This document shows positions 12,384 to 56,084 of a stretch of 64,000 nucleotides of DNA, in pieces. Location of the stretch: positions 832,001-896,000 of the forward strand of contig OY769902.1 in NCBI GenBank assembly GCA_963669175.1, in the 5' to 3' direction. The notes under the pieces were generated by a model that saw only the letters and a program-made list of their open reading frames with translations, had not been told where the DNA came from and made no database searches. The DNA comes from a bacterium (GTDB lineage: Bacteria > Electryoneota > Electryoneia > Electryoneales > Electryoneaceae). The position numbers and the translations under genes were made by a program. Each line of letters begins with the position of its first letter. Position 1 is the first letter of the stretch.

Positions 12384-12574
12384 TAACTACTCTTGAAAAT
12401 AAACCGTCATGATAGTATCCGACGAACGATTCATAGGTGACTAGGAATAAGCCTATGGAAAAAGGGGACAGTTTCCTTTTCCAGAAATACTTCAGAACTA
12501 TTCTGTATAAGCGCGAGGAAAAGGATCCCGTCCCCTTTTCCCGGCAATCTCTATTATGACGGAATAAAATCGAG
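12384..12574 (+). repeat. MITE family C, interrupted by IS110 in its right TIR (remaining tip 13945-13956)
   Basis: Left end matches 54354-54412. Right part matches the empty sites at 8028-8156 and 47490-47615. Confidence 0.8.
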
Positions 12575-12661
12575 TTCCTATGTTAAACGACAGGCGCATC
12601 AAGTCGTGTTGGAACTGCTATCTTAGCAGTATTCCATTTTTCCAACACAAGGAGAAGCGCC

Positions 12662-13723
12662 ATGTCGAAGAACCAAGTTATTGCAGCGGACCGTTCATTG
12701 TCTATAGGTCTGGATGTTGATTCGCAGACTTCTTTCGCCGTTGTGCTCGACACCCAGACTGGTGAAGTGCTCTTTGAGAATCGGATCAAGCATGACTCAG
12801 CCGCTTGGGAACGCTTCTTTGCCCGTTTTCCCAACTGCCGCATGTGGGCGTGTTATGAAGCGGGCCTCACCGGCTTTGGCCTCTGTCGTTACCTGATCGG
12901 CCAAGGTGTTGACTGCCAGATCGCGCCGCCCAGCCAAGTTCCCAAAGGGGCGCAAGCGAAGCAGCAGAAGACCGATCATCTGGATGCCCTTACCTTGGCC
13001 CACATGTTCTGGACACCACCTCGTACCTGGGTACATGTCCCCACAGAACAGGAAGAGGCGGATCGTCAGTTGTCTCGCACCCGTGACCAGGTGATGAATG
13101 ATCGCGTTCGGGTCAAAAACCGAATCAAGAGTCTGCTATTGTTTCACGGTTTACAGTCACCGTTTCCGCCGCAACGCTATTGGACAAAGGAATACCGGCG
13201 CTGGTTGCGAACGTGTGATTGTCTGGCTGCGACACGGATAGCCATTGATGTTGCTCTCGATGAGCTGGAGGCCATTGAACAGCAACTCAAGGTGATCACC
13301 AAAGCGATCAAGGCGATGAATGCGTCCGCAACGTATCGGGACCGTACCCAGCGCCTGTGCCAGGTGAAAGGCGTGGGCGAGCTGACCGTGAACGCCTTCG
13401 TGACCGAGATGTATCGTCCCGAACGCTTCGCATCCGGTAAGCAAGTCGGCGCACATCTTGGCTTGACGCCGTGTGAATGGTCAAGCGCCAACACACGCCA
13501 TATGGGACACATTACCCACTGGGGACCGTCCCATCTACGAAAACTATTGGTCGAAGCTGCGTGGCGTTGGGTGCAAAAAGATCCGTATGCAAAGAAGAAA
13601 TACGATGCGATCCATGCCGGGAAAACACGGAAAGTGGCGATCGTCGCCATGGCACGAAAACTAGCCGTGATACTGTGGGCCATGCTGGTCAAAGAACAAG
13701 ACTACAATCCTGCCTGCGTATAA
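12662..13723 (+). CDS. IS110-family DEDD recombinase/transposase
   Basis: IGLDVD, CYEAG and KTDHLDA (DEDD); GVGEL; GLTPCEWSS (Tnp serine); AIVAMARKL. Confidence 0.95.
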   Translation: MSKNQVIAADRSLSIGLDVDSQTSFAVVLDTQTGEVLFENRIKHDSAAWERFFARFPNCRMWACYEAGLTGFGLCRYLIGQGVDCQIAPPSQVPKGAQAKQQKTDHLDALTLAHMFWTPPRTWVHVPTEQEEADRQLSRTRDQVMNDRVRVKNRIKSLLLFHGLQSPFPPQRYWTKEYRRWLRTCDCLAATRIAIDVALDELEAIEQQLKVITKAIKAMNASATYRDRTQRLCQVKGVGELTVNAFVTEMYRPERFASGKQVGAHLGLTPCEWSSANTRHMGHITHWGPSHLRKLLVEAAWRWVQKDPYAKKKYDAIHAGKTRKVAIVAMARKLAVILWAMLVKEQDYNPACV

Positions 13724-13927
13724 CCCCAGCACTGCTGGCAGGTAGGTAAAGCATAGATTGTGATTGAATCGTCCGATGCCATTGGGAACACGCGACCCTG
13801 GTAGTTATTCTGTTGCTTGACAACGATTCGAGTTTAGGGCGCCGCTGTTCCGTGCGAACAAAAAACTTGTGCCACGAGCACGAATAGCAGAACGGCACAT
13901 GGGACGATACAAAGGCTCTTTACACCC
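13724..13927 (+). ncRNA. Candidate bridge/seek RNA of IS110 copy 1
   Basis: Closing stem 13768-13778/13898-13908. Loops carry matches to target (TAGTTATTCT, TCGAG, GCTGTTC) and donor (TGGGAAC, ATAGCAG). Confidence 0.7.
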
Positions 13928-13956
13928 TTGACTGTTTACATAGCAGAACAGCTATA

Positions 13957-14170
13957 TTTCGCATGATAGATCGTCATCAGGCATCACATTGCGACCTGAC
14001 GACAGCGAGAGTGCTGATACCGGTGGCAGGTCACAACGCGACAATAACAGGACGAGAGGTGGTTTCAGTATCATGTGCATTCAGAAATACATTGCGAAAG
14101 CCGAAAACGGAATGTCGCGTCAAGACCTGCCACAACTTTGCCCGGATGTACAAATTCTTGTGAGGAATCC
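13957..14170 (+). repeat. MITE family D, right two-thirds
   Basis: Aligns by eye with 30237-30450 and ends in the TIR atgtacaaattcttgtgaggaa. Confidence 0.8.
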
Positions 14171-54652: not shown

Positions 54653-54739
54653 TTCCTATGTTAAACGACAGGCGCATCAAGTCGTGTTGGAACTGCTATC
54701 TTAGCAGTATTCCATTTTTCCAACACAAGGAGAAGCGCC

Positions 54740-55801
54740 ATGTCGAAGAACCAAGTTATTGCAGCGGACCGTTCATTGTCTATAGGTCTGGATGTTGATT
54801 CGCAGACTTCTTTCGCCGTTGTGCTCGACACCCAGACTGGTGAAGTGCTCTTTGAGAATCGGATCAAGCATGACTCAGCCGCTTGGGAACGCTTCTTTGC
54901 CCGTTTTCCCAACTGCCGCATGTGGGCGTGTTATGAAGCGGGCCTCACCGGCTTTGGCCTCTGTCGTTACCTGATCGGCCAAGGTGTTGACTGCCAGATC
55001 GCGCCGCCCAGCCAAGTTCCCAAAGGGGCGCAAGCGAAGCAGCAGAAGACCGATCATCTGGATGCCCTTACCTTGGCCCACATGTTCTGGACACCACCTC
55101 GTACCTGGGTACATGTCCCCACAGAACAGGAAGAGGCGGATCGTCAGTTGTCTCGCACCCGTGACCAGGTGATGAATGATCGCGTTCGGGTCAAAAACCG
55201 AATCAAGAGTCTGCTATTGTTTCACGGTTTACAGTCACCGTTTCCGCCGCAACGCTATTGGACAAAGGAATACCGGCGCTGGTTGCGAACGTGTGATTGT
55301 CTGGCTGCGACACGGATAGCCATTGATGTTGCTCTCGATGAGCTGGAGGCCATTGAACAGCAACTCAAGGTGATCACCAAAGCGATCAAGGCGATGAATG
55401 CGTCCGCAACGTATCGGGACCGTACCCAGCGCCTGTGCCAGGTGAAAGGCGTGGGCGAGCTGACCGTGAACGCCTTCGTGACCGAGATGTATCGTCCCGA
55501 ACGCTTCGCATCCGGTAAGCAAGTCGGCGCACATCTTGGCTTGACGCCGTGTGAATGGTCAAGCGCCAACACACGCCATATGGGACACATTACCCACTGG
55601 GGACCGTCCCATCTACGAAAACTATTGGTCGAAGCTGCGTGGCGTTGGGTGCAAAAAGATCCGTATGCAAAGAAGAAATACGATGCGATCCATGCCGGGA
55701 AAACACGGAAAGTGGCGATCGTCGCCATGGCACGAAAACTAGCCGTGATACTGTGGGCCATGCTGGTCAAAGAACAAGACTACAATCCTGCCTGCGTATA
55801 A
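54740..55801 (+). CDS. IS110-family DEDD recombinase/transposase
   Basis: Translation identical to 12662-13723. Confidence 0.95.
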   Translation: MSKNQVIAADRSLSIGLDVDSQTSFAVVLDTQTGEVLFENRIKHDSAAWERFFARFPNCRMWACYEAGLTGFGLCRYLIGQGVDCQIAPPSQVPKGAQAKQQKTDHLDALTLAHMFWTPPRTWVHVPTEQEEADRQLSRTRDQVMNDRVRVKNRIKSLLLFHGLQSPFPPQRYWTKEYRRWLRTCDCLAATRIAIDVALDELEAIEQQLKVITKAIKAMNASATYRDRTQRLCQVKGVGELTVNAFVTEMYRPERFASGKQVGAHLGLTPCEWSSANTRHMGHITHWGPSHLRKLLVEAAWRWVQKDPYAKKKYDAIHAGKTRKVAIVAMARKLAVILWAMLVKEQDYNPACV

Positions 55802-56005
55802 CCCCAGCACTGCTGGCAGGTAGGTAAAGCATAGATTGTGATTGAATCGTCCGATGCCATTGGGAACACGCGACCCTGGTAGTTATTCTGTTGCTTGACA
55901 ACGATTCGAGTTTAGGGCGCCGCTGTTCCGTGCGAACAAAAAACTTGTGCCACGAGCACGAATAGCAGAACGGCACATGGGACGATACAAAGGCTCTTTA
56001 CACCC
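55802..56005 (+). ncRNA. Candidate bridge/seek RNA of IS110 copy 2
   Basis: Same sequence as 13724-13927. Confidence 0.7.
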
Positions 56006-56084
56006 TTGACTGTTTACATAGCAGAACAGCTATACCAGATATGGTTAAGTTTTTGTACTCCGCAGGAGTACGATAAGTGAGCCC

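Follow-up and report, generated by a model that had tools for sequence, protein, structure and literature searches.

A predicted bispecific guide RNA at the 3′ end of an IS1111-type insertion sequence from an Electryoneaceae genome

We analysed a stretch of 64,000 nt from a bacterium of the family Electryoneaceae (assembly GCA_963669175.1, contig OY769902.1, positions 832,001 to 896,000; hereafter, the window). The window carries an insertion sequence of the IS110 family, IS1111 type, which consists of a transposase gene followed by a long non-coding 3′ end. A first-pass annotation, made from the sequence alone, had proposed that this non-coding end specifies a guide RNA able to read both the insertion target and the joined ends of the element. 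Here, we describe the element, its insertion sites and its relatives, and conclude that its 3′ non-coding end very probably encodes a bridge RNA (long seekRNA) of approximately 141 nt with guides for both target and donor DNA.

Results

The element and its insertion sites

The element lies at 12573..13946 on the plus strand and is 1372 bp long, with the AG core counted at both ends. Because AG is common to both ends, its limits can be read as 12573-13944 or as 12575-13946. The encoded transposase has both a DEDD (RuvC-like) N-terminal domain and a C-terminal Transposase_20 domain (Table 1), and its reading frame is open and intact in 12/12 copies of the element. Residues D18/D20, E66, D105, D108 and S274/S275 are invariant in 33 homologs, and from their spacing D18/D20, E66, D105 and D108 appear to correspond to D11/E60/D102/D105 of IS621. 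The C-terminal motif reads GLTPCEWSSA, with SA and not the SG of GL-P----S(T)G; the consensus of the 33 homologs is GLTPCExSSG, and the available text on IS1111 elements mentions an occasional TA at this place (PMC11187229).

The left non-coding end is short (12573-12661, 87-89 nt) and the right one long (13724-13946, 221-223 nt). Subterminal inverted repeats were read directly from the sequence and are absent from the list of a gapless repeat tool: CTATGTTAAAC (12578-88) and the reverse complement of GTTTACATAG (13934-43) share 10 matches with one 1-nt gap, and lie 5 nt and 1 nt inside the ends, or 3 nt from each end if the core is assigned the other way. Joining the ends in silico, as in a circle, gives TTGACT-17 nt-TATGTT, a predicted promoter; promoter prediction found no sigma-70-like site within the integrated element. 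The circle junction itself did not appear in the sequencing runs compared, of which those of unknown kind consist of contigs. Long right and short left non-coding ends, subterminal repeats and a junction promoter are all described for the IS1111 group in the available text of PMC11187229 and PMC11208160, and on these sequence features we assign the element to the IS110 family, IS1111 type. The left end also contains an inverted repeat (12593-12614/12640-12661; 22 nt, 77%) that would pair the Shine–Dalgarno region AAGGAG of the transposase gene and may serve in translational control.

A DNA search and blastn of the element's own genome (5.45 Mb, one contig) identified 12 copies of 1370-1372 bp with 99.27-100% identity. 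The left junction in the window is aaaatcg-AG-ttcctat (12566-12581) and the right junction is catagc-AG-aacagcta (13939-13954). Among the 12 copies, the flanking sequences part precisely at ...TCG-AG|TTCCTATG (left junction) and at ...CATAGC-(A/G)G|AAYNNCTA (right junction). All 12 copies are inserted in a single orientation in the target TCG/CAG-(A/G)G-AAYNNCTA, with no target duplication beyond the shared core. A fuzzy search of the genome with the joined flanks returned 280 places with ≤3 mismatches, many of them repeat ends that read ...ggaataaaaTCGAG|AACAGCTATA without interruption. The empty target, aaaaTCGAG|AACAGCTATA, is thus the end of a genomic repeat with many occurrences. In a DNA sequencing run that contains the element, one assembly unitig spans 12572-13944, and 19-20 contigs pass from 12574 straight into AACAGCTATA. 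Since flank divergence, empty sites, unitig and contigs agree, the boundaries, empty target and circular donor junction given in the first-pass annotation are right.

The left flank (window 12400-12574) is a multi-copy repeat, the last bases of which make up the insertion target. It contains a long hairpin (12456-12543) with the long inverted repeat ggaaaaaggggac...gtccccttttcc, and its motif GTCCCCTTTTCCCGGCAAT occurs 91 times with ≤2 mismatches; Rfam matches to the hairpin are only sub-threshold and microRNA-like. The right flank (window 13948-14100) is a different repeat of ~150 bp that starts (A)ACAGCTATA and has >30 copies elsewhere in the genome, at 92-99% identity and without the insertion sequence.

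A conserved, predicted RNA structure downstream of the transposase gene

A protein search returned 803 proteins with E ≤ 1e-30 among 5113 candidates. Thirty-three of these were aligned and then used to scan genome and metagenome contigs, which gave 160 loci, plus one locus from a genome of the same order; that genome was the only one of 15 others of the order with a relative (48% identity). Homologous loci are cited below by number (L). The nearest named plasmid-borne relatives found are distant by protein identity: ISEc45 (30.8%), IS5708 (28.6%), IS4321 (26.0%) and IS5075 (25.1%).

When the 260 nt that follow the stop codon were simply aligned for 21 loci (43-56% protein identity), a common layout emerged. 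Its 5′ part comprises a variable outer stem, a GACC[CA]CG motif, a variable stretch, a small hairpin ending ACG and a second variable stretch ending AG-T; the 3′ part comprises a return strand, CGAAyA..AAACyTG, a hairpin, the almost invariant CGAATAGCAG, TTGAC and the end CATAGCAG. The left ends of the homologs start AG|TTCCTATG.

As the first-pass annotation had suggested, a covariance model was built from homologous 3′ ends and used to look for covariation between guides and targets; both the helices and the target guides covary. The model was seeded with the window sequence and its centroid structure, and a search of 100 sources gave 15 matches, from which the model was rebuilt (R2) and searched again. 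In the 100 sources, R2 gave 72 matches, 62 of them distinct, with E from 6e-41 to 0.01, all on the transposase strand and downstream of the gene. In the element's own genome, it found exactly the 12 copies, and the two other IS110 paralogs of that genome gave no match. These paralogs are two copies of a second, distant IS110-family transposase with 26% identity and open 355-aa frames (G000:C1:1259236-1260210, 344372-345346). On one metagenome contig, a second and weaker match (L198:2603-2750, 26.2 bits) lies ~1.3 kb downstream of the first, with AATAGATG resembling the left donor guide (LDG, see below); this match could represent another element or what is left of one.

The modelled RNA runs from P1 to P1′ (13768-13908, ~141 nt) and forms a three-way junction, in which P1 closes a multi-loop bearing the target arm (P2-P3-loop-P4) and hairpin P5. 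Standard pairs are formed in 86.7% of the 1920 alignment cells, against 60.9±0.7% after shuffling (0/500 shuffles reach the observed value); since alignment A5 was fitted to the structure of the model and the homologs are related, these shuffle counts overstate the significance, though the margin is still large. When the partner strand was slid by 1-3 columns, only 33-45% of cells were paired. Thirty-three of 35 pairs are changed on both sides among the homologs, and every helix is supported. G-U pairs are frequent on the plus strand (UG in 42/62 at columns 291/368; GU in 31 at columns 54/232), which fits an RNA read from that strand. Applied to 18 homologs aligned by MAFFT alone, RNAalifold yielded only 4 pairs, as that alignment is not structure-aware, and the iterated covariance models were used instead.

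All sequences and coordinates in the first-pass annotation are present in the window, including TGGGAAC, ATAGCAG, TCGAG and GCTGTTC, and much of the fold it drew by hand recurs in the family. The proposed outer stem (13768-78/13898-908) coincides with inverted repeat I7 (15 nt, 87%), and 7/7 pairs of the corresponding helix 1 are changed on both sides, with 91.6% of cells paired. The inner arm with its GTTG/CAAC cap is likewise seen in the homologs, where helices 6-8 all covary. The minimum free energy (MFE) and centroid folds differ on P2, the MFE fold pairing GCUGUUC with GAACGGC; P2 as given in Table 1 is that of the centroid fold, and this helix keeps its pairing with unrelated sequences in homologs. 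Judged from the compensatory changes between sequences, the RNA region is conserved and structured.

Guides that follow the insertion sites

The right target guide (RTG), TAGTTATTCT, forms the 5′ strand of the internal loop of the target arm. Against AGAACAGCTA, it makes 8 Watson–Crick pairs, 1 wobble and 1 mismatch, exactly as first counted. It pairs at 10/10 positions with the target variant AGAATAACTA, which is in use at 2/12 copies, makes 9 Watson–Crick pairs and 1 wobble with the site of a third copy, GGAATAACTA, and pairs at 8-10 of 10 positions at all 12 local insertion sites.

For the family test of the RTG, the right end was located by the motif TTGA[CT]...ATAG in 49/72 matches; after flanks <10 nt and guide windows <7 nt were dropped and duplicates collapsed, 38 distinct pairs with 34 distinct guides were left. 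The mean longest complementary run of a guide with its own flank was 6.7, compared with 4.03±0.21 when flanks were permuted (0/5000 permutations); counting Watson–Crick pairs only, the values were 6.09 and 3.13. Examples of guide and flank are ATAACGCCC with GGGCGTTAT, ATAGCGCCC with GGGCGCTAT and CCTGCGACC with GGTCGCAGG.

The 3′ strand of the loop carries the left target guide (LTG). It contains the TCGAG that had been read as left target plus core, and it tracks the flanks in homologs: in a 5-nt anchored test of the 21 distinct guides with a located left end, 3.76/5 positions match, compared with 1.97±0.23 when permuted (0/5000). The core inside the LTG equals the core at the left end in 22/24 cases, TG-core loci included. 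The left ends of a more distant GC-rich clade (L159, L167 and others) could not be located by a CTAT[AG] search, and these loci are excluded from the tests of the LTG and of the right donor guide. The sequence comparisons indicate that the two guides of the internal loop read opposite target strands, overlap at the core and vary with the target.

The LDG adjoins P5 on its 3′ side. ATAGCAG (13884-90), initially recognised as the left side of the donor plus core, equals the right end of the element, and the family bears this out: the LDG is identical to the right-end 5-mer in 47/48 loci and to the core in 42/48. The left end contains, at 12615-12621, a CTGCTAT that is reverse-complementary to this right end and LDG, and a similar CTGCTAT occurs in some close homologs.

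The bases directly 5′ of P5 follow the variants of the other donor side, with GTATC/G-ATAC, GAATC/G-ATTC, GGAC/G-TCC, GCAACT/AG-TTGC and GAAACT/AG-TTTC as the corresponding guide and donor sequences. In a fixed register, 18 distinct guide and donor pairs gave 3.06/4 paired positions, compared with 2.16-2.34 when permuted (0/10000). By homology, the right donor guide would lie in the multi-loop (Table 1), where donor-binding bases are stated to be common in IS1111 orthologues in the available text of PMC11208160. Among the 12 copies, the RNA and right end vary at only two positions; one of these is 13867, at the end of this strand, which reads T in 9 of them and C in 3.

Handshake bases and a possible polarity of the core

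In IS621, bases 3′ of the top-strand guides are described as pairing with partner DNA after strand exchange (available text of PMC11208158). The first-pass annotation had proposed similar handshake positions, with ATAGCAG-AAC copying three bases of the target side of the junction. Only the first of these stands: the base after the LDG and core (A13891 in the window) is identical to the right target's first base in 26/27 distinct cases, compared with 7.7±2.3 when permuted (0/10000), and is diverse among loci (A 8, C 7, G 9, T 2). In contrast, positions +2 (5/27) and +3 (9/26) are at chance. The base after the LTG and core (T13833) equals the first donor base in 21/24 cases, of low diversity (T/T 17, A/A 4) that follows phylogeny.

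The two junctions of a single copy can differ in their core. Four of the 12 copies have GG at the right junction (window 13945 position; genome copies 4232930, 1687173, 5243412 and 3525644) and AG at the left. Three of these four are inserted in a second family of repeats, with cttTCG-GG-AACGACTATA at its empty sites; given the GG in these empty sites, the core kept at the left junction is that of the donor and the core at the right junction that of the target, in 4/4 copies. Among 48 homologous loci, the right-junction core differs from the guide in five (two with AA, two with GG and one with AG where the guide has TG). At the metagenome locus L134 (RNA 1486-1644), the LTG and LDG carry a TG core and both element junctions are AG.

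We tentatively suggest, at somewhat less than an even chance, that in this clade the handshake extends the bottom-strand guides (LTG and LDG), as a mirror image of IS621, and that insertions into GG-core targets record this polarity. A mirrored polarity would mean that the bottom strand is exchanged first. If true, the position of cleavage and the order of the strands could be read from natural GG-core insertions in a clade without structure or biochemistry.

Table 1. Coordinates of the element's gene, RNA parts, guides and promoter halves in the window
Feature	Position	Strand	Remarks
Transposase/recombinase gene, 353 aa	12662..13723	+	PF01548 (E 5e-18), PF02371 (E 1.4e-19)
TATGTT, −10 half of predicted junction promoter	12579..12584	+	Part of left subterminal repeat; arises with joined ends; left-end motif conserved in homologs
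P1 5′ strand, outer stem	13768..13780	+	Pairs with 13894-13908; helices 1-3, 11/11 pairs changed on both sides, 85-92% of cells paired
P2 5′ strand, GGAACA	13785..13790	+	Pairs with TGTTCC 13846-13851; centroid fold; helices 4-5, 6/6 pairs changed on both sides
P3 5′ strand, GCG-A-CCCTGG, with conserved GACC[CA]CG motif	13792..13801	+	Pairs with 13834-13842; helices 6-7
RTG, TAGTTATTCT	13802..13811	+	Complementary to top strand, core plus right target
P4 hairpin, GTTG-CTTGA-CAAC, capping the target loop	13812..13824 (13812-15/13821-24)	+	Helix 8, 92.5% of cells paired, 4/4 pairs changed on both sides
LTG, TTCG plus core AG (13831-32) plus T13833	13827..13833	+	TTCG-AG identical to left target plus core; T13833 equals first donor base
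3′ strands of P3 (13834-42) and P2 (13846-51)	13834..13851	+	Includes GCTGTTC 13844-50; helices 4-7, centroid fold
Multi-loop strand, GTGCGAACAAAAAACT	13852..13867	+	Conserved CGAAC (13855-59); by homology, right donor guide ~13862-67, C13866 opposite core G
P5 hairpin, TGTGC-CACGA-GCACG	13868..13882 (13868-72/13878-82)	+	Helix 9, 92.2% of cells paired, 3/5 pairs changed on both sides
LDG, ATAGC plus core AG (13889-90) plus handshake base A13891	13884..13891	+	Identical to right end of element, then first target base
P1 3′ strand	13894..13908	+	Helices 1-3
TTGACT, −35 half of predicted junction promoter	13928..13933	+	Followed by GTTTACATAG and ...CATAGC-AG; TTGAC before right end conserved in homologs
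Second, identical copy of the element	54653..56024	+	Genome 886653-888024; its RNA region 55838-55993
Insertion target, written out			TCGAGAACAGCTATA

Discussion

The covariation of helices, together with that of guides and flanks across homologs, supports the central proposal of the first-pass annotation: a bispecific guide RNA with an AG core, in which the donor guides and a nested target loop are both enclosed by an outer stem. The details that did not hold are the placing of the right donor guide and the number of handshake bases. The single-sequence fold energy and the 5-7-nt matches, taken alone, are no better than chance, and it is the comparative tests that raise the case above it.

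By analogy with ISEc11 and IS621, the element would excise as a circle, and the joining of its ends would create the junction promoter, from which the recombinase gene and the RNA would be transcribed. The recombinase–RNA complex would then pair TCG-RG-AAYARCTA sites, at the end of the genomic repeat, with the circle junction ATAGC-AG-TTCC, and strands would be exchanged at the core. In this scheme, the internal loop of the target arm would bind the target, the strands flanking P5 would bind the donor, and 13833 and 13891 would match the partner DNA as handshake bases. Production of the RNA, its binding by the recombinase and its requirement are predicted on the same analogy.

Besides the fitted alignment mentioned above, several results weigh against a bispecific guide RNA. 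The MFE of the single sequence is unremarkable (-47.7 kcal/mol, z = -1.63; 10/200 shuffles fold as well). The sole RNA sequencing run, in which 9% of the sampled words occur, gave two 151-nt contigs inside the transposase gene and none on 13724-13946. Rfam gave no family at gathering score, and its six sub-threshold matches to microRNA models (E 0.21-7.8) all lie outside 13760-13915. Model R2 found no match in ISEc45, IS5708 or IS5075 (best 12.1 bits, E 0.085). Left ends for the tests of the LTG and the right donor guide were found by motif search, and for this reason only 18-25 loci entered those tests. There is almost no variation in the donor ends, so that covariation of the LDG rests on approximately four loci (TG core in L133, L137 and L139; ATAGT in both places in L136). 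Finally, in the window's own element the multi-loop strand offers AAAAACT (13861-67), of which only AACT pairs with AGTT, a score of 2/4, and the P2 strand could pair at seven positions; the P2 strand may assist donor recognition in this element.

The thin donor covariation and the weak right donor guide leave some room for an RNA that seeks the target only, with the protein recognising the donor ends by their subterminal inverted repeats and ATAGCAG conserved for another reason, such as protein binding. A precedent exists in ISEc11, for which an 82-nt short seekRNA with the target arm only is reported, in the available text of PMC11187229, to have supported transposition. Nonetheless, where the core or end of an element differs, its internal copy differs too, at the same loci named above, and the bases 5′ of P5 follow the donor variants. 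The agreement between the base after the LDG and the first target base is also hard to explain unless this strand lies against the recombination joint. We therefore consider a target-only RNA unlikely.

Less likely still, and in our view improbable, is the arrangement of guides based on the first-pass annotation, in which TGGGAAC (13783-89) would open from P2 to pair with GTTCCTA on the donor top strand and GCTGTTC (13844-50) would be a spare target guide. In the window's element, TGGGAAC has 7 possible pairs with G+TTCCTA, against 4 for the guide placed by homology, and in several close relatives G-rich bases at this site can wobble-pair with TTCC or TTTC (L126 scores 7; L127, L134, L137 and L142 score 5). 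However, the mean best run across 25 loci is no better at this site (4.16) than at the other (4.32). The equivalent segment in homologs also lacks complementarity to donors starting ATAC, ATTC, TCCC or TTGC, to which the bases 5′ of P5 are complementary. TGGGAAC overlaps a strand of P2 and pairs with the GCTGTTC segment, in a helix that is kept with unrelated sequences. GCTGTTC is thus present as described, with a structural role in place of the proposed second match to the target.

That the region is a structured 3′ untranslated region, a terminator or a DNA-level site with matches arising by chance is very improbable: the short matches and fold energy would allow it, and a terminator-like site overlaps P5 (though called on the minus strand), but across 34 distinct homologs for the RTG and 21 for the LTG the guides change together with the flanks, to a degree not reached in any permutation, and the RTG is a perfect 10-nt complement of a target variant in use. 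A bridge RNA with guides for both target and donor remains the reading that we hold with high confidence.

An RNA of this kind, at the right end of an IS1111 element and with donor bases in a multi-loop, is already described in the available text of PMC11208160 and PMC11187229; the clade that carries CGAATAGCAG was compared with text descriptions only. As described by Siddiquee et al. (2024; available text of PMC11187229), the seekRNAs of ISEc11, ISPa11 and ISKpn4 likewise lie downstream of the gene for the transposase, within a long non-coding region, and have a target arm in which the match to the top strand lies 5′ of that to the bottom strand and the two overlap at the insertion point. They also have a short form within a long form of ~150 nt (here, P2-P2′ of 67 nt within 141 nt), a target within a repeat, an end-joined promoter and subterminal inverted repeats. 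Unlike those seekRNAs, the present RNA is predicted from sequence alone, and its recombinase shares 25-31% protein identity with the named plasmid-borne relatives. The predicted bridge RNAs of ISCARN28, ISAzs32 and ISPa11 (Durrant et al. 2024, PMC11208160) are alike, by the available description, in their right-end location and multi-loop donor site; the same text gives a figure of 93% of predicted IS1111 RNAs.

The IS621 bridge RNA (Durrant et al. 2024, PMC11208160; Hiraizumi et al. 2024, PMC11208158) shares with the present RNA, as far as the available text describes it, two pairs of guides that read opposite strands and overlap at a 2-nt core, a long 5′ guide and a short 3′ guide per loop, and a handshake base 3′ of the short guide that matches partner DNA; the proteins share the DEDD and Ser arrangement. 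In contrast to IS621, the order of the guides is reversed here, with the top-strand match first, and the handshake extends bottom-strand guides, as in a mirror image. The donor guides lie in the multi-loop that also carries the target arm and not in a second internal loop, a difference noted for many IS1111 orthologues in PMC11208160, and the core is AG, whereas that of IS621 is CT.

The element is a new and ordinary member of the described bridge/seek-RNA systems, and leaves the existing picture of such elements unchanged. As a natural example it is well delimited: 12 copies and many empty sites are present, the target repeat is defined, and 62 distinct relatives, mostly metagenomic, have been aligned by structure. 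In these relatives, the sequence itself reveals the target guides, one donor guide and a handshake of one base. This set of relatives could help in choosing recombinases with different cores, and in deriving the guide rules of the multi-loop IS1111 architecture, which is less studied than that of IS621.

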